Virus record (IMG/VR): IMGVR_UViG_3300006217_001617
DNA from: an uncultured virus (IMG/VR IMGVR_UViG_3300006217_001617)
Taxonomy: Duplodnaviria; Heunggongvirae; Uroviricota; Caudoviricetes
Direction: 5' to 3' (one strand)
DNA: 64,000 bases
The notes under the pieces are model-generated. The model did no database searches and was not told the DNA's origin. It was given only the letters and a program-made list of their open reading frames with translations. Within the stretch, counting starts at the first letter, position 1. Each line of letters starts with the position of its first letter. This document shows, one piece after another, positions 6,021 to 52,821 of the stretch. The translations under genes were made by a program, and so were the position numbers.

Positions 6021-6305
6021 ATGATGCGCAGAAAATATGGAGACTGCCAGCGCATTGACGGTGACTGCACAAAATGCGATCTCGTCAGCTATGGCCGGGA
6101 TTGCCATAACCGGCCAATCACAAAAATGGAATGGTGCAGGATGGCTGCCGGGCTGTCACAAAAGGAACTCGCCCAAAAAAGCGGAATCCACCCTGCCCAA
6201 TTGCAAAAAATCGAGGCGGGCACACGGGAGGCCGGGAAGATGGAAGCCAGTACGCTGCTGTCAATTGCGGACGTACTTGGAGTGCATCCGCGGGACCTGA
6301 TATGA
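6021..6305 (+). CDS. XRE-family HTH regulator with Cys-rich N-terminus
   Basis: GLSQKELAQKSGI...LQKIEAG...IADVLGV HTH pattern; four N-terminal Cys; AGGAGG RBS. Confidence 0.85.
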   Translation: MMRRKYGDCQRIDGDCTKCDLVSYGRDCHNRPITKMEWCRMAAGLSQKELAQKSGIHPAQLQKIEAGTREAGKMEASTLLSIADVLGVHPRDLI

Positions 6306-8023
6306 AAGCAAAGGATTTGACCGGTCAAAGGTTTGGGAAGCTCACCGTTTTGAGTTTAGCGGAGCCTGTATACACAAAAGCAGGGAAACCAGCTCGCCGC
6401 TGGAATTGCCGATGTGATTGCGGTAATGAGCTGGTAGTTCTGCAAAGCTCCCTGACATCTAAAAACGGAACCAGGAGCTGCGGGTGCTCCAGAAGCGATT
6501 ATCAGCGGGCGCACATGGAGGACTTAACAGGCAAGCGCTTCGGACGCCTTATTGTACTCAGCCAGGAGGATTTGCCGGAGAAACAAAGCAACGGCAACAC
6601 GGTCGGATGGCGTTGCCGTTGCGACTGCGGGAAAGAGATAGTCGCAACACGTAAACAACTCGTAAATCAAGGATTGAAAAGTTGTGGCTGCCTCTTGTCA
6701 GATACAGCAAGAGATAAAATAAAAAACAACGTATTACGCCATTACAAGGGGACAACGATATCGGCAATTAACCCGAATCGAAGCCCCAATAGAAACAACA
6801 CATCCGGCGTAAAGGGTGTATATTGGTCAAAAAGCGAGAAGAAATGGACTGCAAAAATCGGATTACAAAATAAAAGCATAACCATTGGAAGATTTGATAC
6901 GCTGGAGGATGCAGCAAAAGCAAGGGAGCAGGCCGAGAAGGACATCCACGCCCCTATTATTGCGGAATACGAAAGCGACTCACGTTGCGGTAAGCCTTCA
7001 AAAGAAGAATGCACTGAAATACGTGGGGAGGATTTGACCGGAAAGCGGTTTGGTAAGTTAATTGTCTGGGGAATTGATGAACCTCATTATACATCCAGCG
7101 GAAAACGTCTCAAACAATGGAAGTGCCGCTGCGATTGCGGAAATGAAATATCCGCATTACACCAGGCCCTAAAGCAAGGCGAAATAACAAGCTGCGGATG
7201 TAATGCAAAAAGATATCAAATGAATGAGAGAAAGTATCCGAAAGACTTATCCGGTCTGCGTTTTGGCCGCCTAACAGTTTTAGAGCGGAGAGACAACAAA
7301 TCGGCGAAAGAGCCGTACATGCACGCATATTTGTGCCGTTGCGATTGCGGCACGGAAAAGGTTGTAAGCCGTGTCGCATTGCTGAATGGGAGCACGAAAA
7401 GCTGTGGATGCCTGCGGAAAGAAAACGGAAAAGAAAAGCCCTTAAAAAATTTCAAATTTTTTAAGGGCACGTGTATATCCGCCATTAAAGCCACAGGATT
7501 GACTGCCGCAAATACAAGCGGTGCGCGTGGGGTTACAAAAAATAAAAATGGCAGATACGTTGCTTACATAGGATTCCGCAACAAAACGAGGTACCTCGGA
7601 AGTTTTGATACCCTGGAAGAGGCTGTCGCTGCGAGGTACGCGGCAGAAAGATTGATTTATGATGACGTTATAGGGGAATACGACTCGCAGAATGCAAGTG
7701 GCGCCCCGCAGAACGATGTTGAAAAAAATGAAGATCCGTCCGAATTAACGGAACCGAAAGAAGATGATCCGCAGGGGAGCGAAGACCGCCCCGCAGTTAA
7801 AAAGAAAAGGGGGAGAACGCCAAAAGACATTACAGGGGAGCGGTTTGGCAAGCTGGTTGCGCTGCATCCGGCAGGATACTCGTTACACGTCAGTGTGGTC
7901 TGGACTTGTCAATGTGACTGCGGAAACACTGTAGATGTAAAATTAAACCATCTTACATCAGGTCACACGCGACAGTGCAGGGAATGCGGAAAAGCGGCAA
8001 AAAGGAGGTCACCCCAACAGTGA
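6302..8023 (+). CDS. AP2-domain protein with five DLTGxRFGxL...CxCDCG zinc-binding repeats
   Basis: Two NTSGxxGV...G.FDTLE.A..AR..AE AP2 motifs; ATGA overlap with the HTH gene stop. Confidence 0.85.
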   Translation: MKAKDLTGQRFGKLTVLSLAEPVYTKAGKPARRWNCRCDCGNELVVLQSSLTSKNGTRSCGCSRSDYQRAHMEDLTGKRFGRLIVLSQEDLPEKQSNGNTVGWRCRCDCGKEIVATRKQLVNQGLKSCGCLLSDTARDKIKNNVLRHYKGTTISAINPNRSPNRNNTSGVKGVYWSKSEKKWTAKIGLQNKSITIGRFDTLEDAAKAREQAEKDIHAPIIAEYESDSRCGKPSKEECTEIRGEDLTGKRFGKLIVWGIDEPHYTSSGKRLKQWKCRCDCGNEISALHQALKQGEITSCGCNAKRYQMNERKYPKDLSGLRFGRLTVLERRDNKSAKEPYMHAYLCRCDCGTEKVVSRVALLNGSTKSCGCLRKENGKEKPLKNFKFFKGTCISAIKATGLTAANTSGARGVTKNKNGRYVAYIGFRNKTRYLGSFDTLEEAVAARYAAERLIYDDVIGEYDSQNASGAPQNDVEKNEDPSELTEPKEDDPQGSEDRPAVKKKRGRTPKDITGERFGKLVALHPAGYSLHVSVVWTCQCDCGNTVDVKLNHLTSGHTRQCRECGKAAKRRSPQQ

Positions 8024-38396: not shown

Positions 38397-38587
38397 GTGC
38401 CCGGCGGCAGTTCGCCGCAGTCGTCCAGCCCGGCCATTTCACGGACAAGCGCGTCCCGCAGGTCGGCGACCATCTCTGCCACCTTGTCCAGCAGGCCGAT
38501 TCGGTATTCCGCTGGATACATCGGATCAATCGCCTGAAGCAGCAGATACGCGCCGCCGCTGCCAATGTCCTGCATCTGTTCTGTCAT
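38393..38587 (-). CDS. Small hypothetical early protein
   Basis: ATGA overlaps on both sides; AAGGAGG RBS. Confidence 0.65.
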   Translation of the reverse strand: MTEQMQDIGSGGAYLLLQAIDPMYPAEYRIGLLDKVAEMVADLRDALVREMAGLDDCGELPPGT

Positions 38588-38790
38588 GCGGGTTCCTCCT
38601 TGATTTGATTTTGCGCGCCCTCCTGGGCGTCGGCAATCCGCGTGGCCTTGACCGTGCCCTCTACACCGTAGGTCAGCCGCAGGGCAGCGCCCAGCGCGTC
38701 AAACAGCCGGGCGAAGTCAAGCCGACCCTCCACCTGAACGCCTTCTGCTGCAAAACGCTCGTACATTCCGGCGTGAGTATTCTCTGTCAT
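38584..38790 (-). CDS. Small hypothetical early protein
   Basis: AAGGAGG RBS before MTENTH. Confidence 0.6.
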   Translation of the reverse strand: MTENTHAGMYERFAAEGVQVEGRLDFARLFDALGAALRLTYGVEGTVKATRIADAQEGAQNQIKEEPA

Positions 38791-38803
38791 GGAAAAGCCC
38801 TCC

Positions 38804-38849
38804 TTGCACCTCCTATTGAAATCTGATATACTGAAATCAGAAAGGAGGT
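38804..38849 (+). promoter_or_regulatory. Cassette promoter/RBS block, copy 1
   Basis: TTGCAC-17 bp-TATACT with TG extension, then AAAGGAGG; near-identical block at 39654. Confidence 0.75.
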
Positions 38850-38855
38850 GAAAAT

Positions 38856-39338
38856 ATGAATGATTACTTTTATGCGTCAATCTGTCTGAACGGACATTGC
38901 AGCGATTCCTGCTTAACCGTCCCGGTTGCTCAAGAGCGCTATTGCGAATATTGTGGAAAAGAAATTATAACACAATGTCCAAACTGCAAAACTGCCATCA
39001 GAGGGAGATTTGATTATGGCGCGGAGAACGTTTGGGACTGTACAGATTACAATCCCCCTCTGTATTGTTATTGCTGCGGAAAAGCGTTTCCATGGACACA
39101 GACTGCACTTGACACTGTAAAAGCATTACTCGAAGAGGACGATAATCTGTCATCAGATCAACGTCAAAAACTGGTTGAGGTCCTTCCGGACGCCATTCAG
39201 GAAACGCCCAAAACACAGCTTGCAACAATAAGGCTCCAAAAGGCACTCAAATCGGTCGGCCGATTCACTGCGGATTCCCTTCGACAATTCTTAATTGATT
39301 TTGGATGCGAATACCTCAAGAAAGCCTTAAAACTTTGA
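38856..39338 (+). CDS. DUF2321-like zinc-ribbon protein (moron)
   Basis: ICLNGH...C..CG...CPNC...IRG...P.YC..CGK.FPWT motif; AT-rich; own promoter. Confidence 0.8.
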   Translation: MNDYFYASICLNGHCSDSCLTVPVAQERYCEYCGKEIITQCPNCKTAIRGRFDYGAENVWDCTDYNPPLYCYCCGKAFPWTQTALDTVKALLEEDDNLSSDQRQKLVEVLPDAIQETPKTQLATIRLQKALKSVGRFTADSLRQFLIDFGCEYLKKALKL

Positions 39339-39512
39339 TTGCTTCCTCTCCAGAAAAAGCCTGTAACCCGGACATTTGCCCTGCCCGCAGTTATAGGGCT
39401 TTTTCTTTACCCAGCAATAGCAGATGTTCCTCACCTTAGATCCACATTTGCGACAATAATTAGCTTTTTCTGAGTTGTTCGCCCCACATTTAATACATAT
39501 CGATTTAATCAC
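39327..39512 (-). CDS. Small Cys-rich zinc-ribbon protein
   Basis: CIKCG..N...ANYCRKCG; GTG start; 3' end overlaps the convergent DUF2321-like gene by 12 nt. Confidence 0.65.
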   Translation of the reverse strand: MIKSICIKCGANNSEKANYCRKCGSKVRNICYCWVKKKPYNCGQGKCPGYRLFLERKQSKF

Positions 39513-39521
39513 CCCATCACG

Positions 39522-39665
39522 ACCGCCCCGCATGGGGCGGCTTTTATGTGCCGTCCTGTGCTGCGGCACTATAACCCTTGCGCCTCCTTCCGTAGCCGCC
39601 CCGCCCGGGACAGCTTTTTATGCACTGCCTTATGCTGCGGCGGTTCGTAGCCCTTGCGCCTCCTG
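39522..39665. repeat. Tandem ~75-bp hairpin+RBS units; third homolog at 40025-40085
   Basis: CCGCCCC-loop-GGGGCGG-TTTTATG hairpins at 39522, 39595 (degenerate) and 40039; CCCTTGCGCCTCCT at 39575 and 39651. Confidence 0.75.
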
Positions 39666-39697
39666 TTGAAATCTGATATACTGAAATCGAGAAAGGA
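39654..39697 (+). promoter_or_regulatory. Cassette promoter/RBS block, copy 2
   Basis: TTGCGC-17 bp-TATACT; shares TTGAAATCTGATATACTGAAATC with copy 1. Confidence 0.75.
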
Positions 39698-39707
39698 TGT
39701 GAATAAA

Positions 39708-39875
39708 TTGAAGCCGGAAGAAATTGCTTTGAGCCTGACACTCAAGGGGATTGAGCATGGTAGTATTGTCCCGTCTACAAGTGGAGATTTGGGCATGGAA
39801 CATGCAGAGAAAATTGCCGAAGCGTACAAGATCATCCTTGATGGCGTAAGGAAATCGTACATAGGTGAAGACTAA
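39708..39875 (+). CDS. Small hypothetical moron protein (MKPEEIALSLTLK...)
   Basis: Downstream of promoter copy 2 and AAAGGA; TTG (or GTG at 39699) start. Confidence 0.6.
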   Translation: MKPEEIALSLTLKGIEHGSIVPSTSGDLGMEHAEKIAEAYKIILDGVRKSYIGED

Positions 39876-40015
39876 AACCTTAGACAATCCTCCACCGTAT
39901 GTATCGCAACCGAAAGCATCAAAAGTTCGGATGCGCTCAAACCGTCCTGAGCAGACTTCTCTGCAAGCAGCTGCAACTGTTTGCAGAGAAGTTCTTTTAT
40001 CTCATTGCGCGACAC
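39872..40015 (-). CDS. 47-aa hypothetical protein (MSRNEIKELLCKQLQLLAEKS...), below the ORF-track cutoff
   Basis: GGGAGG RBS, GTG start; TAG stop overlaps the TAA of the convergent gene. Confidence 0.6.
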   Translation of the reverse strand: MSRNEIKELLCKQLQLLAEKSAQDGLSASELLMLSVAIHTVEDCLRF

Positions 40016-40059
40016 GTCCTCTTACACCTCCCTTCGTGGCCGCCCCGGTTGGGGCGGTT

Positions 40060-40236
40060 TTATGCGCTGTCTTTGGCAGCGGCTGTTTGGATGCTCTCAC
40101 CGGCAAGCAGGCCGTCCGTGTAGGCCTGGAGCATCAGCGCGGCCAGGGCCTGTTTGTTCGTTGGAGCACTTTGCAGGACGGCATAGAGACGCTTGCCCTC
40201 GGCGATGCTCTCCGGGGTATATGGGGTTTTGTTCAT
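40060..40236 (-). CDS. First early gene, in Cro position (no clear HTH)
   Basis: AGGAGG RBS; divergent from the repressor. Confidence 0.65.
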   Translation of the reverse strand: MNKTPYTPESIAEGKRLYAVLQSAPTNKQALAALMLQAYTDGLLAGESIQTAAAKDSA

Positions 40237-40264: not shown

Positions 40265-40355
40265 CTATTGTAAGTCATATTGGGACAATTGTCAAGAACT
40301 TTTTTGTGCTTACGTGACTTTTTGTTGACAAAGGAACTTTTTTGTGCTATATTCG
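40265..40355. promoter_or_regulatory. Divergent lysis/lysogeny promoters with repeated operator-like motif
   Basis: Plus strand TTGACA(40325)-17-TATATT; minus strand TTGACA(40295)-17-TACAAT; GAACTTTTTTGTGCT at 40296 and 40334. Confidence 0.75.
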
Positions 40356-40376: not shown

Positions 40377-40892
40377 ATGATTGGTGACCAAATAAAAGCA
40401 CTGAGAAAAACACTTGACCTTACTCAGCAGGCGTTTTGTGAACGAATAGGCATCAAAAGAAACACTATAGCGAAATACGAAACTGGCCGTGGAGAGCCTA
40501 TTGATGCCGTGGTGTCCTTGATATGTCGAGAGTTTGGCGTTAGTGAAGAATGGCTACGAACCGGGAACGGAAAAATGTTTAAGGAAAAGGAGACTGATGC
40601 ATTAGACATCTTGGCTTCCGAATATGGAATGAGCCAAAGCGACCGTATACTTATCGAAAAATTTCTTTCGTTAAAACCTGAGCACCGCCAAGCTGTGATG
40701 CAATACGCTATTGATGTTGCTGCCGCCTTTAACTCTTTAGAAAATACGGTAACAGTATCCGGGCAAATTGATCCGAAAGAGAAAATGTCTGTCGAGGAAG
40801 CCGAGGCGGTTTATATAAAAAGTCGCTTAGATGCTGCGCAGAAAACGGGACCGTCTGTTTTGAATACCTTGTCCGACACAATAACAGGATAA
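40377..40892 (+). CDS. CI-like XRE repressor
   Basis: IKALRK.L.LTQ..F...IGI...I..YE.G...IC..FGVSEEWLRTG.G.MF. Confidence 0.9.
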   Translation: MIGDQIKALRKTLDLTQQAFCERIGIKRNTIAKYETGRGEPIDAVVSLICREFGVSEEWLRTGNGKMFKEKETDALDILASEYGMSQSDRILIEKFLSLKPEHRQAVMQYAIDVAAAFNSLENTVTVSGQIDPKEKMSVEEAEAVYIKSRLDAAQKTGPSVLNTLSDTITG

Positions 40893-42160: not shown

Positions 42161-43528
42161 ATGCCAAAAGAAAAAACTACATCCAATACCATTCCGCGCG
42201 TTGCGCTGTATGTCCGCGTCAGCGGGCAGGAACAGGCCATCAAGGGCTTGTCTCTGGAGGCCCAGCAGGAGGACCTGGAGGAATACGCCCGCGCCCAGGG
42301 CTGGATCATCGCCGGGGTTTACATCGATGCGGCCAAGACCGCGCGCAAGCGGCTTTACAAGCGCACCAACTTCCTGCGCATGCTGGAGGATGTCAAACAG
42401 GACAAAATCGACCTGATTTTATTCACCCGGCTTGACCGCTGGTTCCGGTCGGTCGCCGACTATTACAAGGTGATGGAAGTGCTTGAAGCACATCACTGTG
42501 ACTGGAAAACCACGCAGGAGCAGTACGACACCAGCACGGCCGGCGGCCGCCTGTACATCAACCTCCGCCTGTCCATCGCCCAGAATGAGGCCGACCTTTG
42601 CGGTGAACGCATCAGCGCGGTATTTGATAATAAAATCAAACATGGCACCGTCGTGTCCGGGGCGGTGCCATTCGGATATCGAATCAATGATCAAAAGCGC
42701 TTGGAAATCGTGCCGGATCAAGCCGCAATTGTTCTGGACGTGTTTGAGCATTATCGTGCAGTGGTGTCCAAGCGCGCCACACTAAAATATGTCCGCGAAA
42801 CCTATGGTATCAACTGGTGCCCTGGGACGATGAAAAATATTCTTCAGCAGCAGCGATATACCGGGTATTACGAAAGCCGCAACCGCGTAAAGGAAAATTT
42901 CTGCCCGGCCATTGTACCGCAAGAGCTGTTTGACGAAGTGCAGCGACTGCTCGACCGCAATGCAAAACAAGGCCCCGCTGGACGCATCTACTTATTTTCG
43001 TCCATCCTCATTTGCAATGAGTGTGGGCACCGGCTGTCAAGCGCGTTCAATCGAAAACCATATTACCGGTGCTACAACTACTCTAATCGTCGGCTATGCA
43101 CACACAAGCGCAATATCCGCGAGGAAGTCCTAGAAAAATGGCTGCTGGAGCATATCGAAAGTGAATTTGCACAGTACCGGATGAAATGGGAACAGGCTGA
43201 GGAACAGCGTAAGCGCACGGCGAAATCTGTAGACCGCGCCGCAATCCGCCGAAAGCTCGCCAGGCTTCAGGACCTGTATGTGAATGAATTGATTGATATA
43301 GAAAATTATCGCCGAGACTACGAGATGTACATGGATCAGCTTGCCGTACCGCCCGAGCAGGAAAACCCGCGCCCTAACTTTGAAAATATCGACGCACTGC
43401 TATCCAAGGGATTCCGCCGCACCTATGAAGAACTTTCACAAGAAGGGAAACGCACCTTTTGGCGTTCTATCATCCGAGAAATCCACATCGATAACGACAA
43501 TCAAGTCGTCAATATCATTTTTTCATAG
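42161..43528 (+). CDS. int: Large serine recombinase (integrase)
   Basis: YVRVS catalytic Ser, RLDRWFR, PFGY recombinase domain, C..CG...YYRC...C zinc ribbon, coiled coil; ends next to the att junction. Confidence 0.96.
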   Translation: MPKEKTTSNTIPRVALYVRVSGQEQAIKGLSLEAQQEDLEEYARAQGWIIAGVYIDAAKTARKRLYKRTNFLRMLEDVKQDKIDLILFTRLDRWFRSVADYYKVMEVLEAHHCDWKTTQEQYDTSTAGGRLYINLRLSIAQNEADLCGERISAVFDNKIKHGTVVSGAVPFGYRINDQKRLEIVPDQAAIVLDVFEHYRAVVSKRATLKYVRETYGINWCPGTMKNILQQQRYTGYYESRNRVKENFCPAIVPQELFDEVQRLLDRNAKQGPAGRIYLFSSILICNECGHRLSSAFNRKPYYRCYNYSNRRLCTHKRNIREEVLEKWLLEHIESEFAQYRMKWEQAEEQRKRTAKSVDRAAIRRKLARLQDLYVNELIDIENYRRDYEMYMDQLAVPPEQENPRPNFENIDALLSKGFRRTYEELSQEGKRTFWRSIIREIHIDNDNQVVNIIFS

Positions 43529-43534
43529 GATTTT

Positions 43535-43575
43535 GTATACTAACTGGATTAACCCTCCGGCAGGTGATCCAAACG
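43535..43575. other. Prophage junction (att site, integrase-side end), core TCCGG at 43556-43560
   Basis: Adhesin frame ...DHLP runs into phage-derived EG-TAA; arm GTATACTAACTGGAT is an imperfect inverted match to ATACAATTAGTACAC at 5469-5483. Confidence 0.9.
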
Positions 43576-46500
43576 GATAACGCCGTTGACATCCGTGGTG
43601 TAATCGCCTTCCGGGTAAGGATTGCCGTTACACCCTTGAATCTTGAACTTTACGCCATCAATCGGTTCGCGGGTAACGCTGTCAATTTTCTTAATTATCA
43701 GGCATCCTTTCTTCGTGTTTGTGAACGTAAGAGTCTGCTGATCGTTCGCTTCCACAACCACAGTCTGCGGGGCTGCGTCCAGCACATAATCTTCGAGTGT
43801 GCGCACCTCTGTTACCGTATAAGTACCCGGTTTCAGATGCGAAATCTCAATCTGACCGGCTTCGTCGGTGACATAAATGCCGTTTGTGGAGGTCATGCCC
43901 TCATTGTCGGCAACCAGCTCACCATTTGCGGTTGTAATCTTGAATTCGACGCCTGTAAGCGGTTCGCCAGTCTGGCTATCCTTTTTCACAATCAGGAGAC
44001 CGCCTTTCGGGGCATTGAACACATCGAGGATGTAAGTCTGGTGATCTTTGATCGTGATGGTTTTCGGCGTATCATCAAGGAGATACCCCGGCTTCGCCTG
44101 CACCTCGGTAATGATGTAGCTGCCGGGTTCGAGATTCGGAAGGGAAATGTAACCTTGCTCGTCCGTCCGGAACTCGCTGTTAGTCGTGCCAACCGTTGTC
44201 CCATCTGCATGAATGATACGGAAAATAACATCCGAAAGCGGCTCTTTGGTCTTAGAATCCATCTTTTTCAAGAGGAGACCGCCAAGCGGTTCGTTTTCAA
44301 AAGTCAGCTTTCTGGTCTTTCCTGCTTCGACGTTGACGGTCTGAACAGTGCTGTCGAGACGGTATCCGTCCTTGGTCTGCCGCTCCACCACGGTATAATC
44401 GCCGCTCGGAAGGTGGTTGATCTGGATTACACCATTGCCGTCAGTCGTGAACTCGCCACCCTGATAGATGTTGCCATTGCAGCCCTTGATTTCAAATTTC
44501 ACGCCGGAAAGAGGTTCTTTGGTAACGCTGTCCACCTTTTCGATGAGCAGGCAGCCCTTTTTCGTGTTCGTAAAGGTCAGCACCTGCATATCGTTGGCTT
44601 CCACGACTACTGTCTGCGGAGGTGCATCCAAAATGTAGTCCTCCAGCGTGCGCGTTTCTGTTACCAGATATGCCCCCGGTTTTAGCTGCTTGATTACAAT
44701 CTCACCGTCCGCATTCGTCCTGTAAATGCCGTTTGTGGAGGTCTGGCCTTCATCATTCGGCACAAGCTCGCCGTTTGCAGTGGTGATCTTGAACTCGACA
44801 CCTTCCAGCGGTTCGCCGGTCTGCGAGTCCTTTTTAACGACGACAAGCGCCCCTTTCGGCTGATTAAAGAACTCGATTGTGTATGTCCGGTGGTTCTTAA
44901 TATCAATCGTTTTAGGAGTGTTATCGAGCAAATATCCAGGCTTCGCCTGTATCTCCTGAATCACGTAGCTGCCGGGTTCGATATCCGGAATCGAGATGAA
45001 TCCCTGCTCGTCCGTGTGGTATTCACCATTGGATTCGCCGAACACTGTGCCGTCCGAGCGCGTGATTTTGAACAGTACGTCGCTGAGCGGTTCCTTGGTT
45101 TTGGAGTCCATTTTCTTGACAATCAGACCGCCAAGAGGCTCGTTATCAAAGGTGACTTCCTTGGTCTTGCCAGCTTCAATATTGACCGTATGGACGGTAT
45201 TATCGAGACGATACCCGTTTTTAGCCTGCGTTTCCGTAACGGCATAATCTCCGCTTGGAAGGTGATCGATCCGAATCACGCCATTGCTGTCGGTCGTGAA
45301 GCTTCCTTCAGGATAGGGATTGCCGTTGCATCCCCTGATTTCAAACCGAACATCTGCCAGCGGCTCGTGAGTTACACTGTCAATTTTCTTAATTATCAGG
45401 CATCCTTTCTTCGTATTTGTGAACGTCAGAACCTGCATATCGTTGGCTTCGATTACCACCGTCTGCGGCGGAGCATCCAGCACATAATTGTCCAGAGTTT
45501 TTGTCTCCGTAACGGTATATGCACCTGGCTTTAGCTTGTTGATGACGAATTCCCCGTTCTCGTCGGTGCGATAAATGCCGTTTGAAGAGGTCTGCCCTTC
45601 GTTATTCGGGACAAATTCACCGCTTGCAGTCGTTACTTTGAATTCCACGCCTTCGAGCGGTTCGCCGGTTTGGCTGTCCTTCTTAACGACAACCAGATTT
45701 CCCTTCGGCTGATTGAACAGCTCAAGGACGTAGGTCTGGTGATCCTTAATCGTGATTACCTGTGGGCTGTCGTCCAGAAGGTAACCCGGTTTTGCTTTCA
45801 CTTCCTTGACTATATAGCTTCCTTGAGCAAGATCTGTCAGCGTGATATAGCCATTTTCATCGGTTCGATACTGGCTGTTCGTCGTGCCGACAACTGTACC
45901 ATCCGCGTGAGTAATTTCAAAGATCACATCCGAAAGCGGCTCTTTCGTGACGGAATCCATTTTCTTAATCAGGAGTCCGCCAAGCGGCTTATTTTCGAAT
46001 GTCAGCTTGCGGGTTTTCCCGGCTTCGACGTTTACGATCTGCGCGGTACTATCCAGCTGATAGCCGTCCTTCGCCTGCTTTTCAATAATCGTATAATCGC
46101 CACTCGTAATGTGGTCAATTTGAATCAGACCGTTTCCATCCGTCGTGTAGATATCGGCGGGATAGGCGTTTCCGTTGCAGCCGCGCACCTCGAATTTCAC
46201 GCCGGAAAGCGGTGCTTTCGTAACACTATCGACCTTTTCAATGACGAGACAGCCCTTCTTCGTGTTCGTAAACGTCAGGAGCTGCATATCGTTTTCTTCA
46301 ACTACAACCGTCTGCGGAGTGGTGTCCAGCATGTAGTCGTCCAGCGTGCGCACCTCCGTCACGACATATGCGCCCGGTTTTAACTTGGAAACAACGATTT
46401 CGCCATTAGAATCGGTACGGTAAATGCCGTTTGTCGAAGTCATGCCGCCATTATTCGGCACAAGTTCGCCGTTTGCAGTCGTGATTTTGAACTCAACACC

Positions 46501-49500
46501 TTCCAACGGCTCGCCGGTCTGTGCGTCCTTTTTGACGATAACCAGCGCCCCTTTCGGTTTGTTAAAAAACTCAAGCGTATACGTCTTATGGTCGCGAATT
46601 TCAATGGTTTTCGGCGTATTATCGACCAGATAGCCTGGTTTTGCCTGCACTTCCTGCACCGTGTAGCTCCCCGGCGCAAGCTCCGGAATCGAAATGAAAC
46701 CGCGCTCGTCGGTGCGGTACTCGCCGTTCGACTCGCCAACAACGGAACCGTCCGTGCGCGTGACCTTAAAAATCACCTCGCTGAGCGGTTCCTTCGTGAC
46801 GGAATCCATCTTTTTGATGAGAAGTCCGCCAAGCGGCTTGTTTTCGATGGTGACTTCCTTGGTTTTTCCAGCTGTAACGTTGACCGTGCGGGGACTGCTG
46901 TCCAGCTGGTAGCCGTCTTTCGTCTGCGTTTCAACAATCACATAGTCGCCGCTTGGAATGTGGTCGAGCCGGATCAGTCCGTGGCTGTCGGTCGTGACGG
47001 TTTCCTCAGCATAAGCGTTGCCATTGCTGCCCCTGATTTCAAAGCGGACACCGGAAATCGGCTCATGCGTGACGCTGTCCACTTTGGAGATAACAAGTGA
47101 TCCTTTCCTAGTATTTGTGAAAGTCAGCGTCTGAACATCGTTTGGCTTCACGGCAACCGTCTGCGGCGGCGCGTCCAGCACATAATCGGGAAGGGTTTTA
47201 ACTTCAGAAACGATATATGTGTCCGGTTTCAGCTTGGAAATGAAGATTTCGCCTTTAGAATCCGTCCGGTAGATACCGTTTGAGGTGATCAGACCCTCGT
47301 TGCTGTCCACAACCTCACCGGTCGAAGTCGTTACCTTGAACTCGACGCCTTCCAGCGGTTCTCCTGTTTGACTGTCCTTTTTGACAATCAGAAGTCCGCT
47401 TTTCGGCTGGTTCACGACCTCTAAAACGTAGGTTTGGTGATCCTTGATAGTTACCGTTTTCGGCGTGTCGTCAAGCAAAAATCCAGATTTCGCCTGCACC
47501 TCTTTAACGATGTATGTGCCAGGTTCAAGATCGGGAATTGAGATATAGCCTTCGGAATTCGTCCTGAACTGCCCGTTGGAAATGCCAATCGAGGTTCCGT
47601 CCGCATGGGTCACGCTGAACAACACGTCGGGGATCGGTTCCTTCGTCGTCGCCGACATCTTTTTGATCAGCAGACCACCGAGCGGTTCGTTCTCAAAAGT
47701 TATCTCTTTGCAAGCTCCCGCTTCGACCTTTACGATCTGCGCGGTATCATCCAAACAGTAGCCGTCCTTTGCCTGCGTTTCCACGATGGAATAACATCCG
47801 CTGGGAATATGCGCCAGCTTGAACGTACCGTTTGAGTCCGTTGTGTAGGTTCCTGCGGGGTAATCGCAGCCGTTACAGCCTTTAACCTCGAACTGCACGC
47901 CGGAAAGCGGTGCATGGGTTACGCTGTCAATTTTCTTGACTAAAAGACAGCCCTTCGGCGTGTTCGTGAAGGTGATTGTCTGGGTGTCGTTTGCGTTGAC
48001 AACCACCGTTTGCGGCGCTGCATCCAGCACATAATCCGGAAGTGTTTTCGTTTCAGTAATAATATATGTGCTGGGTTTTAATTTTGAAATTTCGATAACG
48101 CCGTTCGAGTCGGTCTTGTAGATACCGTTCGAGGACGTTACGCCCTCGTTGCTGTCTACTACTTCGCCGGTCGAAGTCGTTATCTTAAACTCAACGCCTT
48201 TCAAAGGTTCTCCCGTAATGCTGTCTTTTTTAATAACGACGAGACCGCCTTTCGGCTGGTTGAAAAATTCGAGGGAATAGGTGCGGTGGTCCTTAATCTC
48301 GATGTGCTTCGGCGTATCGTCGAGCAAAAATCCGGGCTTTGCCTTGACTTCTTGCACCACATAACCTCCCGGTTCCAAATCGGGAATCATGATGAAACCT
48401 CGCTCATCCGTCCGATATTCGCCGTTGGAAGTCCCGACGACCGTGCCGTCCGTTCTGGTAACCTTGAAAATCACATCGGAAAGCGGCTCCTTGGTCACGG
48501 AATTCATCTTTTTCAGCAGAAGTCCGCCTAAAGGCTCGTTTTCGATGGTAATTTTTGCGGTTTTACCGGCTTCGACCTTCGCAACACGGCTGTTGTTCTC
48601 AAAGCGATAACCGTCCGGCGCACGCTTCTCCTCAATCGTGTAGTCGCCGCTGGTCAGGTCTTGCAGAAGGATTTGACCGCTGCTGTTGGTTGTGAACGAA
48701 GTCGCGGGAAAGTTGCTGCCCTTGATTTCAAAAGTTGCGCCCTGAAGTGGGCTGCGCGTCACGCTGTCGATTTTTTCAATCAGCAGCTTACCCTTCGGCG
48801 TGTTCAAAAAAGTCAGCGTTTGTGCATCGTTTGCCGACACAACAACGGTCTGGGAAGCTGTATCAAGTTCGTATCCGTCGACTGTCTTTGTTTCGGAAAC
48901 GATATATGTCCCTGGAGTGAGCTTCAAAAGCACAATCTGGCCGTTTGCATTGGTTTTATACATTCCATTTGTGCTTGTAAGCCCTTCATTGTCAGGGACA
49001 AGTTCGCCGCTGGCAGTCGTGATTTTGAATTCGGCACCCGGCAGGGGCTTTCCCGTAATGCTGTCTTTTTTGACAACAATCAGGCTTCCCTTCGGTTGGT
49101 TCCGAAATTCGAGTGTCATTGTCTCGTTAGCCTTGATTTTAATCGTCTGCGGCACGTCGTCGAGGACATATCCGGAACGTGTGCGGGTTTCCTTCGCGAT
49201 CACGGTCATGCCGGGTTCGAGACCGTCAACATGGATCGTGCCGGAGCTGTCGGTCACATACTTGCCATTTGAGTTTCCGATCACATTGCCGTCGCTGCCG
49301 GTCAGCTGAAACTCAACATCAGACAGCGGCTTACCGGTCGCAGCGTCTTTCTTGACGATGAGCAGGCTGCCCTTTTTATCGTTTCCAAAAGTTATGGTAA
49401 TGACATCCTGCTCTTTGCCAGAAAGGTACACCGTCTGCGCGGAATCGTTGATGACATAGCCTTCCGGCGCGGAAACCTCCTCGATCACATAAGTACCAGC

Positions 49501-52500
49501 TTTTAAACCGGTTTTTACAATCGTGCCGTTGCTGCTGGTCATATACTCGCCGATGGTCGTGCCGCCTGTACCAGAAGTGCCGCCGAGGTAGCGAATACGA
49601 AACCACGCACCCTCCAAAACTTTTCCAGAATCTGCATCGACCTTCTTAATGACAATCGCACTCAGCGGAACATTTTCAAAGGTGAAGGTCTTGTGGCCAC
49701 CTGCCTTGATGTAGGCTTCCTGCGTCGCGGGCTGCTTGATGGAATAGCCTGCGGGCGCTTCCAGCTCGGTGACTTTGTACCAGCCATCCTGCACCTTATC
49801 GAGCTTAATCTGTCCGTTTGCGTCTGTAAAATAGTCGCCAAGGTCATTGATTTCGCCCGTTGCGGTATTGTTGCTGGCATAGGTGATGTGGAACTTTGCA
49901 CCCTTTAACGGGTCGCCGGTCACGCTGTCTACCTTCTGAATCAGGAGCGAAGGCTTCGGATAATTGTAGAAGCGAACAATCCCTGTTTCGTTCGGAACAA
50001 GCGTAATCAGCTGCGGTTTTTCATCAATCAGGTAGCCTTCTGGGACTTTCTTTTCGCTCACCTGATATACCCCAGGTTTCAAATCATTGACTGTAACGGT
50101 TCCGTCCGCGCCCGTAATAACTGTCGTAAGCGTTGACGAGTCTGCTTCGTTAATCGTGAAGGTTACGCCGGGGAGCGGCTTGCCTGTAACCGCATCCGTT
50201 TTTACAATCTTTAGATTAGGCTTTCGGTAGTTGTTGACAACCAGCTTCGAGCCTTTTCCGGGGAACAGTTCAACGTGGTACTCGAGCGTGTTTTTTACAT
50301 AGTGGGCAGGCTCGGCCTGCTCGACTACGGTGTAAACGCCCGGCTCCAGATTCTCAATCAGAATACGGCCATTTTCATCCGTTACCCGGTCAAGATAGTG
50401 CGTTCCGTCCTCAATCTTCGCAATTTTGAAAGTCGCTCCGGGGATGTAAACATCGTTATCCGGGTCGTATTTCAGAATTTCCAGCCACGGTTTTTTCGTG
50501 TTTGTGAACACAAAACGCGCAGTTTCATCTGGATTCAGTTGGATAGTCCGGACGGCATCATCGATCAGATAGCCGTCGATAGTCAACAGCTCCCGCACCT
50601 GATATGCGCCCGGTTCCAGCTTGGAAAGATCAATCTCGCCCTTTGCATCGGTGGTATATTCTTTTGAGAACGTGCCGCCAATCTGCGATATCAAAAACTT
50701 GACATTCGGCATGGGCTTAAGGCTTTCGGAATCGATTTTGACGAGGTACATACCGGGCTTCAGCTGATTCATGAACACAAGCTCCGGCACCTCAGTCTGG
50801 CCGACCTGCAGCTCGATCTGTTGTGGCGTAGAATTTACCACATGCTCCGCATCGGACGCAACCTCTTTTACCATGTAGGTTCCGGGCTTCAGTCCGGTCA
50901 GATTAATCTCGCCGTTCGTATCGGTCTGCTTGCGCCCAAGGGAAACAGCATTGCAAAAAATCTCAAATGTGATACCGGACAGCCGCTTATTGCTCTGCTG
51001 GTCAAACTTAATGATTTTCAGCTTTAACTCTGCGTAATCCTTCATTTCAACCGGAATAATACGTTCTCCGGACGCCATTTCATTCGGGTTGATGTACTGC
51101 GTTACGATTTCGTCCGTCTTCAGGTAGCCCTCCGGAGCCTGCTTCTCTTTGAACGTGTACGTACCTTCAACCAATTCTGTAATTGTGAACGTGCCGTCTT
51201 CCTGCGTCTCATAGTCGCCGATCCGCTGGTTGTTGCGGCTAACCTCAATGATTGCACCCTTGAGGGTTTCACCAGTCACCGCGTCGCGCTTCACAAACAG
51301 AATTGAGGGTTTCCGGTGGTTCTGGAACGTCAGCGTAATTGGAGTCGCTTTGCCGTCCCAGGAGAAGGTTTGCACCGGATTCGGGTCTTTCTCGTAACCT
51401 GGAGGCGAGGTGATTTCGGTTGCCTTCCAGCCACCCTTTTTGTCGGCGGGAAGCTCGATCGTTGCAAGCCCGTCGCCTAGCGTCGTGACCGTGCTCTTGA
51501 AGCCGGACTCGATGTGCTCGACTTCAATCGTGCAGTCCGCAAGAGTTTCGCCGGTGTCAGCATCGACCTTCTTAATAATCAGCTCGCCGGGTTCCTCCGG
51601 TTCGTCTGGGTCATCAGGATCATCGGGATCGTCCGGGTCATCCGGGTCAGGAACATCGACATTTCCCCACTTGATAGGCAAATGATTTTCTGTATCCTGC
51701 CACTGCGGTCCGCTAATCAGGTATTTCTGATAATCTTCACTGTTTTCATAACCACTTGCACGGCCCACAAAAATTTCAAAGGATTCAACAGTCGCGGAAA
51801 CGTCAACATTGAAAGCATAATCGGTTTCTGCTTCCGCCGCTTCTTTCGGTACCCAGACTTTCACAACTGAATAATATTCGGAGCCGTTCACGTTCGCATC
51901 GGTTGTCTGGACAATCGGTTTTGTCGAAATCGGTGTGCCATTGTACGGCTCCGGATCGGCAGGGCTGGAATGGTTCTCATCCTTGACGATCTGGAGTAAA
52001 GTACCCGGAAGGTAATCGGAAAGACCGATCTTTAATGCATTGCTCTGGCAGAATGAAGCCGACGCAGCCTTGATTTCCTGCGTGTAATATTCCTCACCAT
52101 CGTGGGTTTCGGTTGCTTCCGCATTCAGCTCACTGCCGCTGCTGGGCGACCAGTCAATCACACCATTTTGAGAGTGTCCAGGGCCATGCCGCAGATACAT
52201 TCCGACATAATAGTTATGATTGATGGTGTTGGCATAATTGAGCAGTGCCTTGACTGCCGCCATTACACGCGCACCTTCTGTACTGTGTGAGGATGAAATT
52301 TGAATTGCGTTGCCGCTGGTGAATGCCGTGCCGCTGACGCTCAGCTGACCAAGCGCCGCCCACATTGCGGTTTGGGTCGCATAGCGATATTCATCCTCTG
52401 TCAAATCACGGGGAACAGCGGGAAACTGGTTCAGAAACGACTGTAAAGTGAGACGCCCGCTGCCGCGCATAATGACACCCACAGCTTTAGGGTTTTGCGT

Positions 52501-52821
52501 ATAGCCGCTGCCCGCATCCAGCTTGTAGGTATGGCGGTTTGTAGAGGGTGCTACTTCATGAATGCCGTGTTTGCCGTGATTCATACAATATGCCTGGAAT
52601 TTCTCCCCATTTTCGTCCGCGTAGCATTCGTGGATGGGCAAATTTACCCAGGAACCGCCCTTTTGCTCACGAAAATAACTTTGCTTGTCATTTTCAAAAA
52701 CTAAGGTTACTGAGTCTCCGCCGGTGAATGCAGCCGCCTGCGGAAGCTCTCCCGCGAATGAGCTGAACACCGTTGCTGCCGCCAAAACAGAAGACAGCAG
52801 GCGCTTCAATTTGTGCTTCAT
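43549..52821 (-). CDS. 5' fragment (3090 aa) of the giant thioester-domain/SpaA-repeat surface adhesin
   Basis: Signal peptide; YCM...TQTAMW thioester-domain signature; DPD linker; many SpaA/CnaB-like repeats; truncated at att. Confidence 0.92.
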   Translation of the reverse strand: MKHKLKRLLSSVLAAATVFSSFAGELPQAAAFTGGDSVTLVFENDKQSYFREQKGGSWVNLPIHECYADENGEKFQAYCMNHGKHGIHEVAPSTNRHTYKLDAGSGYTQNPKAVGVIMRGSGRLTLQSFLNQFPAVPRDLTEDEYRYATQTAMWAALGQLSVSGTAFTSGNAIQISSSHSTEGARVMAAVKALLNYANTINHNYYVGMYLRHGPGHSQNGVIDWSPSSGSELNAEATETHDGEEYYTQEIKAASASFCQSNALKIGLSDYLPGTLLQIVKDENHSSPADPEPYNGTPISTKPIVQTTDANVNGSEYYSVVKVWVPKEAAEAETDYAFNVDVSATVESFEIFVGRASGYENSEDYQKYLISGPQWQDTENHLPIKWGNVDVPDPDDPDDPDDPDDPDEPEEPGELIIKKVDADTGETLADCTIEVEHIESGFKSTVTTLGDGLATIELPADKKGGWKATEITSPPGYEKDPNPVQTFSWDGKATPITLTFQNHRKPSILFVKRDAVTGETLKGAIIEVSRNNQRIGDYETQEDGTFTITELVEGTYTFKEKQAPEGYLKTDEIVTQYINPNEMASGERIIPVEMKDYAELKLKIIKFDQQSNKRLSGITFEIFCNAVSLGRKQTDTNGEINLTGLKPGTYMVKEVASDAEHVVNSTPQQIELQVGQTEVPELVFMNQLKPGMYLVKIDSESLKPMPNVKFLISQIGGTFSKEYTTDAKGEIDLSKLEPGAYQVRELLTIDGYLIDDAVRTIQLNPDETARFVFTNTKKPWLEILKYDPDNDVYIPGATFKIAKIEDGTHYLDRVTDENGRILIENLEPGVYTVVEQAEPAHYVKNTLEYHVELFPGKGSKLVVNNYRKPNLKIVKTDAVTGKPLPGVTFTINEADSSTLTTVITGADGTVTVNDLKPGVYQVSEKKVPEGYLIDEKPQLITLVPNETGIVRFYNYPKPSLLIQKVDSVTGDPLKGAKFHITYASNNTATGEINDLGDYFTDANGQIKLDKVQDGWYKVTELEAPAGYSIKQPATQEAYIKAGGHKTFTFENVPLSAIVIKKVDADSGKVLEGAWFRIRYLGGTSGTGGTTIGEYMTSSNGTIVKTGLKAGTYVIEEVSAPEGYVINDSAQTVYLSGKEQDVITITFGNDKKGSLLIVKKDAATGKPLSDVEFQLTGSDGNVIGNSNGKYVTDSSGTIHVDGLEPGMTVIAKETRTRSGYVLDDVPQTIKIKANETMTLEFRNQPKGSLIVVKKDSITGKPLPGAEFKITTASGELVPDNEGLTSTNGMYKTNANGQIVLLKLTPGTYIVSETKTVDGYELDTASQTVVVSANDAQTLTFLNTPKGKLLIEKIDSVTRSPLQGATFEIKGSNFPATSFTTNSSGQILLQDLTSGDYTIEEKRAPDGYRFENNSRVAKVEAGKTAKITIENEPLGGLLLKKMNSVTKEPLSDVIFKVTRTDGTVVGTSNGEYRTDERGFIMIPDLEPGGYVVQEVKAKPGFLLDDTPKHIEIKDHRTYSLEFFNQPKGGLVVIKKDSITGEPLKGVEFKITTSTGEVVDSNEGVTSSNGIYKTDSNGVIEISKLKPSTYIITETKTLPDYVLDAAPQTVVVNANDTQTITFTNTPKGCLLVKKIDSVTHAPLSGVQFEVKGCNGCDYPAGTYTTDSNGTFKLAHIPSGCYSIVETQAKDGYCLDDTAQIVKVEAGACKEITFENEPLGGLLIKKMSATTKEPIPDVLFSVTHADGTSIGISNGQFRTNSEGYISIPDLEPGTYIVKEVQAKSGFLLDDTPKTVTIKDHQTYVLEVVNQPKSGLLIVKKDSQTGEPLEGVEFKVTTSTGEVVDSNEGLITSNGIYRTDSKGEIFISKLKPDTYIVSEVKTLPDYVLDAPPQTVAVKPNDVQTLTFTNTRKGSLVISKVDSVTHEPISGVRFEIRGSNGNAYAEETVTTDSHGLIRLDHIPSGDYVIVETQTKDGYQLDSSPRTVNVTAGKTKEVTIENKPLGGLLIKKMDSVTKEPLSEVIFKVTRTDGSVVGESNGEYRTDERGFISIPELAPGSYTVQEVQAKPGYLVDNTPKTIEIRDHKTYTLEFFNKPKGALVIVKKDAQTGEPLEGVEFKITTANGELVPNNGGMTSTNGIYRTDSNGEIVVSKLKPGAYVVTEVRTLDDYMLDTTPQTVVVEENDMQLLTFTNTKKGCLVIEKVDSVTKAPLSGVKFEVRGCNGNAYPADIYTTDGNGLIQIDHITSGDYTIIEKQAKDGYQLDSTAQIVNVEAGKTRKLTFENKPLGGLLIKKMDSVTKEPLSDVIFEITHADGTVVGTTNSQYRTDENGYITLTDLAQGSYIVKEVKAKPGYLLDDSPQVITIKDHQTYVLELFNQPKGNLVVVKKDSQTGEPLEGVEFKVTTASGEFVPNNEGQTSSNGIYRTDENGEFVINKLKPGAYTVTETKTLDNYVLDAPPQTVVIEANDMQVLTFTNTKKGCLIIKKIDSVTHEPLADVRFEIRGCNGNPYPEGSFTTDSNGVIRIDHLPSGDYAVTETQAKNGYRLDNTVHTVNIEAGKTKEVTFDNEPLGGLIVKKMDSKTKEPLSDVLFKITRSDGTVFGESNGEYHTDEQGFISIPDIEPGSYVIQEIQAKPGYLLDNTPKTIDIKNHRTYTIEFFNQPKGALVVVKKDSQTGEPLEGVEFKITTANGELVPNDEGQTSTNGIYRTNADGEIVIKQLKPGAYLVTETRTLEDYILDAPPQTVVVEANDMQVLTFTNTKKGCLLIEKVDSVTKEPLSGVKFEIKGCNGNIYQGGEFTTDGNGVIQINHLPSGDYTVVERQTKDGYRLDSTVQTVNVEAGKTRKLTFENEPLGGLLLKKMDSKTKEPLSDVIFRIIHADGTTVGTTNSEFRTDEQGYISLPNLEPGSYIITEVQAKPGYLLDDTPKTITIKDHQTYILDVFNAPKGGLLIVKKDSQTGEPLTGVEFKITTANGELVADNEGMTSTNGIYVTDEAGQIEISHLKPGTYTVTEVRTLEDYVLDAAPQTVVVEANDQQTLTFTNTKKGCLIIKKIDSVTREPIDGVKFKIQGCNGNPYPEGDYTTDVNGVIRLDHLPEG
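43556..49300 (-). repeat. 849-bp (283-aa, three-domain) tandem super-repeat, continuing at ~4200-5464
   Basis: Equivalent positions at 43556, 44405, 45254, 46103, 46952, 47801, 48650 and at 5460, 4611. Confidence 0.9.

Follow-up and report, generated by a model that had tools for sequence, protein, structure and literature searches.

Convergent antisense gene pairs with repeated borders downstream of the cro-position gene of a gut prophage: a candidate slot for exchangeable accessory genes

The 64,000-nucleotide (nt) sequence of an uncultured Caudoviricetes virus (IMG/VR record IMGVR_UViG_3300006217_001617), henceforth referred to as the window, contains a temperate prophage of ~38 kb in which an array of two small convergent gene pairs with repeated borders lies directly downstream of the cro-position gene. 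The plus-strand gene of pair A, referred to as cargo A (38856..39338, +), encodes a 160-amino-acid (aa) protein of the DUF2321 family (PF10083, E 4.4e-47), which covers positions 2-156 of the 157-position family model and scores 160 bits against a gathering cut-off of 24. Its 3′ end overlaps by 12 nt that of partner A (39327..39512, −), which encodes a 61-aa zinc-ribbon protein with eight cysteines (PF13240, E 7.4e-7). Pair B consists of cargo B (39708..39875, +), a 55-aa orphan open reading frame (ORF) with a TTG start and a Shine-Dalgarno (SD) site, and partner B (39872..40015, −), a 47-aa orphan ORF with a strong SD site that is the first gene after the cro-position gene and overlaps cargo B by 4 nt. 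The GC content of the four genes is 41-47% compared to 57% for the early region. An earlier sequence-only reading had described two convergent, overlapping pairs in exchangeable cassettes, and both overlaps were recovered.

Each cargo gene is preceded by a copy of the same sequence block, as had been proposed for two ~45-bp blocks at 38802 and 39652. The copies (38802-38838 and 39652-39688) are identical at 35 of 37 nt (95%), the likeness runs on to ~50 nt and includes the SD site, and the block pattern was matched twice in the window and never in 100 shuffles. Block 1 (38802..38851, +) contains a weak −35 element (38804), a 17-nt spacer, an extended −10 element TGnTATACT (38824-38832) and the SD site, with AGGAGG on the minus strand; block 2 (39652..39702, +) contains an extended −10 element at 39674-39682 and an SD site. 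Only two plus-strand extended −10 sites of the form TGnTA(T/C)A(A/C)T occur in positions 6000-43600, one per block, and the blocks probably act as promoters. The suggestion that each block also serves as a minus-strand ribosome-binding site (RBS) held at block 1, where the AGGAGG serves a 68-aa early-operon gene of no known family (38584..38790, −) at which the lytic operon resumes left of the array; the AGGAGG of block 2 leads into an empty unit with no gene.

The right-hand border is a unit in which an RBS and a hairpin are joined to the final codons of the cro-position gene, and is present in three copies, one intact (40021-40085) and two decayed (39572-39641 and 39523-39567). The hairpins that had been placed at 39522 and 40039 were found at 39523 and 40040. 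The former, with its T-tract and a decayed copy of the cro-position gene 3′ end (39523..39567, +; RNA fold z −2.05), is the predicted terminator of the cargo A transcript, and the latter follows the RBS of partner B and, with its T-tract, adjoins the stop of the cro-position gene (40021..40062, +; z −2.22). The empty unit of ~75 bp claimed between the cassettes is likewise present (39572..39651) and contains an RBS copy, a degenerate hairpin (39596-39614, z 0.44) and a decayed cro-end copy (39616-39641). Each hairpin is followed by the terminal part of the cro-position gene, either intact or as a decayed copy. T-tracts are found on the plus-strand side only, so the hairpins would terminate transcription of the cargos but not that of the lytic operon. 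The strongest hairpin lies inside partner B (39954..40003, +; hairpin 39954-39993; z −4.49), has a T-tract, and is the predicted terminator of the cargo B transcript. This near-perfect 17-bp hairpin also encodes the same short peptide on both strands in the partner B frame. An Rfam scan of seven loci returned two tRNAs only and no match for the borders.

Pair A is not confined to the window. The DUF2321 genome set comprised 80 loci taken from 106 genome stretches encoding DUF2321, and a profile of the partner matched 22 of these 80 loci at E < 1e-7, in every case as a convergent gene overlapping the DUF2321 stop. Nineteen of the 22 had trained the profile and three (L022, L066 and L069) were new; no significant match was found elsewhere in the 80 loci, which had been picked by DUF2321. 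Sorted by record title, 19 of the 29 Bacillota loci have the partner, as do 3 of the 51 remaining loci. The window copy is 38-53% identical to the other 19 members of a 20-sequence alignment, with the cysteines conserved. A tblastn search of annotated phages with DUF2321 returned six records representing three phages; in all three, DUF2321 lies antisense in the early region and an unannotated cysteine ORF of 56-58 aa overlaps its 3′ end. Among 14 partner loci that were mapped, a helix-turn-helix (HTH) gene lies nearby in 12, phage replication genes in a 13th, and no match was obtained in one; in most of them a small cro-position gene precedes the partner. The pairing is kept across Clostridia, lactobacilli and staphylococci while the flanking genes differ. 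In a quick tree, the window DUF2321 falls within a 14-row clade (Shimodaira-Hasegawa-like approximate likelihood ratio test, SH-aLRT, 99) in which every row has the partner. The proposed co-occurrence was thus borne out for pair A, whereas pair B has no homologues by which to judge it; the feature is real and more widespread than the single window shows. Two further arrangements were observed: in L022 (3978-4508, −) a 176-aa protein has the second half of the partner as its fused C-terminal part, and in L038 (2960-4591) DUF2321 and its partner are flanked by plus-strand repressor-like genes without an intervening cro, a layout nearer to that of Tha/Ith, discussed below.

The sequence-only reading depended on the small minus-strand ORFs being conserved, and for pair A this is the case. 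In a codon test of 13 partner cores outside the cargo overlap, 55% of mismatches fell at third positions, and the partner genes of L015 and L032 differ by nine synonymous codons and one non-synonymous codon; such codon patterns indicate that the partner is under purifying selection. The conserved cysteines together with the third-position bias argue that the partner is a real protein family. An antidote role for the minus-strand gene was addressed by complex prediction. Cargo A with partner A scored 0.55 compared to 0.01 for the best of three controls. In the calibration of the tool, 116 of 157 solved pairs but also 2 of 215 mismatched ones attain its mark, and 18 of the 157 and both mismatches do so with scores at or below 0.60. 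The runs agreed in at least 90% of contacts, with a predicted local distance difference test (pLDDT) score of at least 76 for the partner, and the prediction lends weak support to binding of cargo A by partner A. The first half of the partner resembles the zinc ribbon of the cargo (probability 85%, 21 columns), which suggests mimicry of the cargo by the partner. DUF2321 and its partner are probably linked in function.

The plus-strand gene had also been suggested to be a toxin. A constitutive toxin held in check by the minus-strand gene, as in an addiction module, would agree with the small overlapping pair, with the weakly supported complex and with one locus (L120) in which DUF2321 has been deleted to 14 codons and the partner is intact. 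Against it, the partner lies in the repressed lytic operon and would be absent when the cargo is made, family scans of the array genes gave no toxin match, and 58 of the 80 DUF2321 loci, including nine assessable Bacillota loci, have no partner, although at least three partner-less loci end too near a contig edge to judge. This explanation is considered very unlikely. A classical module of type II was rejected, as the genes are convergent rather than co-oriented and co-occurrence is not obligate, given those same 58 partner-less loci.

Exchange of modules at the borders was supported directly in a sister lineage, and hints of it were obtained for the window border. Three short contigs from another study, with depth 2-4, carry the window border beside other neighbors. 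The first contains block 2 (two differences in 37) with a different left neighbor and a different cargo start; the second is identical over 38727-38850, followed by 27 unaligned letters from the SD site on; the third matches the cro end and the hairpin, followed leftwards by 321 unlike letters. Across 25 DUF2321-partner loci, the left border resembled the right border of the same locus more than expected (0 of 5000 permutations both with the window and without it; mean 24.75 vs 18.07 permuted, window excluded). The same-locus signal rests on six loci (L013, L015, L017, L023, L029 and the window); in three of these the RBS region recurs at either side of the cassette, and in three a promoter block does. 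A block-like sequence was also noted in Streptococcus phage Javan85 (L009:3501-3888), where 47 nt of promoter-SD sequence are held in common with block 1 (87.5%); there the block drives an antisense 70-aa gene overlapped by 12 nt by a convergent 49-aa gene.

The sister block pattern, 25 nt derived from the block of L015, L023 and L032, retrieved 22 viral loci (L108-L129), two of which run off the contig. The 20 readable loci, nine of them near-copies, contain ten cargo families, two of which are DUF2321. L111 and L126 have 86 nt in common with differing genes on both sides, and L111 and L119 have block, cargo and partner in common with a different left gene; L120, described above, has lost most of DUF2321 and kept the partner. 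The swaps map to the block edges and are direct evidence of cargo shuffling at the promoter block in the sister lineage. The border search that had been called for thus gave a tabulated set of cargos for the sister block and, for the window border in viral contigs, a single contig. Taken together, modular exchange is regarded as quite probable. In the antisense cargos of these gut phages (L108-L129, L013, L015, L023 and L032) a conserved 25-nt hairpin-like element was observed between the −10 box and the SD site; a scan of the genome loci in this group (L013, L015, L023 and L032) gave no Rfam match to it, and it might form a structured leader at the 5′ end of the transcript besides being a point of recombination. 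Site-specific exchange by a dedicated cassette system was considered and set aside, as no second recombinase was noticed near the array and the borders differ between lineages.

One other occupant of the slot is related to a known defense gene. In L028 (1949-2641, +), an antisense cargo in a prophage early region is a homologue of PD-T7-4, or RAZR (E 5.6e-20), with a DUF4145 domain. An extended −10 site of its own precedes it, and the 56-aa ORF (2609-2779, −) that lies convergent to it and overlaps its 3′ end is, judged by this position, a candidate cognate inhibitor.

The DUF2321 protein was modeled from 88 sequences with a pLDDT of 93.6. The model predicts a cysteine-rich N-terminal half with two zinc sites and a C-terminal part of five helices. 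Invariant residues are the cysteines and a G-x-x-x-P-W-T motif. Foldseek with this model gave no match at E ≤ 0.001, a wide VIA fold search with an earlier model of pLDDT 66.5 gave a best Z of 3.9, and all Atlas leads were under 0.9. Partner-less DUF2321 genes in L039, L049 and L064 adjoin terminase genes, a second prophage slot for the family.

These observations are best accommodated by a model in which the region after cro is a slot for accessory genes, likely defense genes, that are expressed in the lysogen, silenced in lysis and shuffled at repeats. Each block would be a repressor-independent promoter. In the lysogen, the repressor would shut the cro operon and the blocks would drive cargo transcripts across the partner genes, with the one-way hairpins ending these transcripts after the partner is covered; cargo and partner would thereby be mutually exclusive. 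Upon induction, the opposing lytic transcript and the zinc-ribbon partner protein, a predicted DUF2321 binder, would switch the cargo off. Expression in the lysogen and silencing in lytic growth are proposed from the layout and from published analogues. DUF2321 would act as a phage-triggered defense protein in the lysogen. Since the partner would be absent there, and the majority of DUF2321 genes lack one altogether, DUF2321 is expected to do no harm before it is triggered, in better agreement with conditional defense than with addiction. Ordinary homologous recombination, at promoter blocks and at RBS-hairpin-cro-end units, would bring in new pairs and remove old ones, leaving empty units behind, and would require no dedicated recombinase. 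As a whole, the model is judged evenly balanced between right and wrong.

Several results weigh against it, and those concerning exchange and the pair are given first. No long relative with the window border was found in viral contigs, the metagenome or 401 genomes. Searches of viral contigs with three border patterns returned only one contig, identical to the window and not independent; the DNA search of the 401 genomes, in which few candidates were scored per genome, returned only the genome at the center of the analysis, and the block at up to three mismatches occurred in none of them. A single locus matched by the hairpin pattern proved unrelated, and four metagenome border matches with no similarity to the window were taken as chance. 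The hairpin border of the window is not conserved, and 19 of the 25 DUF2321-partner loci have no strong locus-specific flanking repeat. L109 and L121 carry the same partner family although their cargos cannot be aligned, which shows that some partners are not specific to one cargo, and any antisense insertion automatically yields a convergent neighbor. The start of partner A is doubtful: GTG at 39512 has no clear SD site, and GTG at 39569 (80 aa) has AGGAGG 13 nt upstream. The likeness between the two zinc ribbons could inflate the complex score.

Some of these results would agree with passive inheritance, in which a zinc-ribbon early gene was captured once with DUF2321 and co-inherited, the repeats being left over from local duplication and not serving as sites of recurrent exchange. 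The scarcity of flanking repeats and the missing full relative favor this, as does the clustering of partner presence on the quick DUF2321 tree, where four changes suffice and are compatible with one origin. However, the partner profile had no significant match away from DUF2321 in the 80 DUF2321-selected loci, the link persists in Clostridia, lactobacilli and staphylococci despite changing flanks, the sister-lineage swaps map to block edges, and the complex prediction weakly favors a direct contact. Passive inheritance is considered unlikely.

The remaining adverse results concern defense. None of the four array genes had a significant PADLOC match (best E 0.039), the DUF2321 alignment has no invariant catalytic-type residue, and just 4 of 88 rows have an Rx4-6H motif in their helical half, with no conserved HEPN motif. 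Solved relatives by sequence were generic zinc-finger stretches, with none for the whole of DUF2321. Partner-less DUF2321 is spread over many phyla as a lone gene, mostly among housekeeping or mobile-element genes; around 45 such loci, with up to three large neighbors scanned at each, PADLOC matched 12 of 132 proteins, several via generic domains (kinase, HEAT, UvrD). PADLOC also matched 1 of 20 other antisense cargos, the RAZR homologue, which means that the slot can carry defense genes and is not proof that all cargos do. The suggestion that the plus-strand gene is a defense gene drew no direct support, DUF2321 having neither a PADLOC nor a fold match. A literature search for DUF2321 or PF10083 returned no relevant paper; supplements, which might list DUF2321 among predicted defense families, were outside its scope. 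A defense role for DUF2321, likely on the present analysis, is among the least certain parts of the model.

A zinc-binding helical protein that lacks an invariant catalytic-type residue and a PADLOC match, and whose gene pair adjoins the genetic switch, might instead be a regulator, active in the lysogen, that adjusts host functions or the choice between lysis and lysogeny and is counteracted by its partner in early lytic growth. Such a regulator would have no need of lone copies across many phyla or beside the terminase genes mentioned above, and the slot holds many unrelated cargos, one of them a known defense gene; this explanation is considered unlikely. Everything in the slot model that concerns pair B is likewise among its least certain parts. 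Homologue searches with pair B found none, with Atlas matches under 0.9. Comparison with other small convergent pairs gave no significant likeness (at best 1 of 500 shuffles among 12 comparisons), and membership of a small-pair family is not claimed.

The surrounding genes are those of a prophage. The minus-strand early region leads to replication genes and then to packaging, tail and lysis genes, and a large serine recombinase (42161..43528, +; PF00239, PF07508, PF13408) lies at the prophage end. The cro-position gene (40060..40236, −) encodes 58 aa with no HTH family match, and a protein search of viral contigs returned the window's own phage only. An HTH repressor occupies the cI position (40377..40892, +; PF01381, E 1.9e-13; PHROG repressor families), and divergent sigma-70-type promoters of the genetic switch lie between the two genes (40267..40353; minus 40295-40267, plus 40325-40353), each with 11 of 12 consensus positions. 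Homologues of the cro-position gene sit divergent from a repressor in L105-L107; in L105/L107 (G176:C2) two such repressor and cro-position units stand in tandem ~1 kb apart. The repressor region is 68.6% identical to that of Faecalibacterium phage FP_Epona, and a mouse gut metagenome that may be the window's own source sample has contigs more than 99% identical to the window; the host is presumably a gut clostridial bacterium. A very large, repeat-rich surface-protein gene (2534-5470 and 43549-52821) is apparently split by the prophage. On inspection of the sequence its fragments join in frame at a 4-nt core near 5467 and 43556, and excision could restore it. A 630-aa ORF (6131-8023, +) between the lysin and the left prophage end is another candidate lysogen-expressed gene.

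A broader proposal, which is rather doubtful, would make the array one example of a recombinase-free, integron-like arrangement after cro in temperate phages of gut Clostridia, where pairs of defense gene and antidote are exchanged whole at common promoter blocks, with DUF2321 as a new non-HEPN anti-phage family, a zinc-ribbon mimic as its inhibitor in prophage early operons, and other cargos as further defense genes beside their cognate inhibitors. If true, it would provide a positional rule for anti-phage genes and their inhibitors in gut prophages (an antisense gene after cro whose 3′ end is overlapped by a small gene), an initial testable role for the widespread DUF2321 family, and a name for a small partner family missed in three annotated phages. 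The remaining slot cargos would form a mineable set of defense genes with cognate inhibitors adjoining. Repeat-mediated shuffling, known from lytic T4-type phages, would extend to two-gene, life-cycle-gated modules of temperate phages.

Among the closest known systems is Tha/Ith of Staphylococcus aureus prophages, an opposite-strand pair with mutual transcriptional exclusion in which one side is made in lysogeny and the Ith protein inhibits Tha after induction (Rostol et al. 2024, PMC11087260). The tha gene is in the cI operon, ith is antisense with its own promoter, and Tha is a HEPN ribonuclease; the available part of that report describes no repeated borders (PMC11087260), which the array has. 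The two systems have in common a prophage opposite-strand pair in which a small overlapping antisense gene is kept with its cognate, here for pair A only and in 22 of 80 loci. The layout is a mirror image, as the cargo here is preceded by a promoter block of its own and the partner belongs to the cro operon. DUF2321 also differs from Tha in having no HEPN family match in Pfam or PADLOC scans and an Rx4-6H motif confined to the four rows noted above.

The sieB gene of phage P22 sits antisense in the early-left operon. It is a prophage exclusion gene whose effect is lifted in lytic growth by an antisense RNA and an escape protein (SieB/Esc/sas; PMC12197685, PMC7067206). Esc, however, is a second peptide of the sieB gene and not the product of a convergent gene, and the host phylum differs; no SieB family was among the Pfam, PHROGs and NCBIfam scan matches of the window proteins, with which SieB itself was not directly compared. 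Four noncontiguous operons are described in 80alpha, and RNA data for Phi13 show lysogenic-direction genes inside the lytic region (PMC11034616, PMC9694928). The array is similar in that two plus-strand genes interrupt the minus-strand early region. The function of the 80alpha and Phi13 antisense genes is not known, and the available parts of these reports mention no dedicated partner or repeated border (PMC11034616, PMC9694928).

T4-type phages have PeSL cassettes, in which orphan genes stand between copies of a promoter and stem-loop motif at which recombination takes place, and an empty site matches a filled one (PMC2839356, PMC4122927). The array likewise has repeated promoter and stem-loop motifs around variable orphan genes. 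Filled or swapped sites of this type between close relatives were found at the sister block; for the window border, the three short contigs of depth 2-4 give hints of them. PeSL cassettes belong to lytic phages, run sense to early transcription and combine promoter and terminator in one motif, whereas the array is found in a temperate phage with a serine recombinase, is antisense, has separate motifs and holds two-gene pairs. RAZR (PD-T7-4) is a zinc-finger HEPN ribonuclease with a DUF4145 domain that acts by abortive infection (PMC13017515). It resembles DUF2321 in having a zinc-ribbon N-terminus and a helical C-terminus, and its homologue in L028 occupies the same kind of antisense slot, but no window protein matches DUF4145 or PD-T7-4. 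Tha/Ith, sieB/Esc and PeSL provide precedents for the individual parts; the literature search, which covered main texts rather than supplements, gave no report of the DUF2321 pair or of this combination. The array would work like these systems but differs from Tha/Ith, PeSL and RAZR in the defining features of each.

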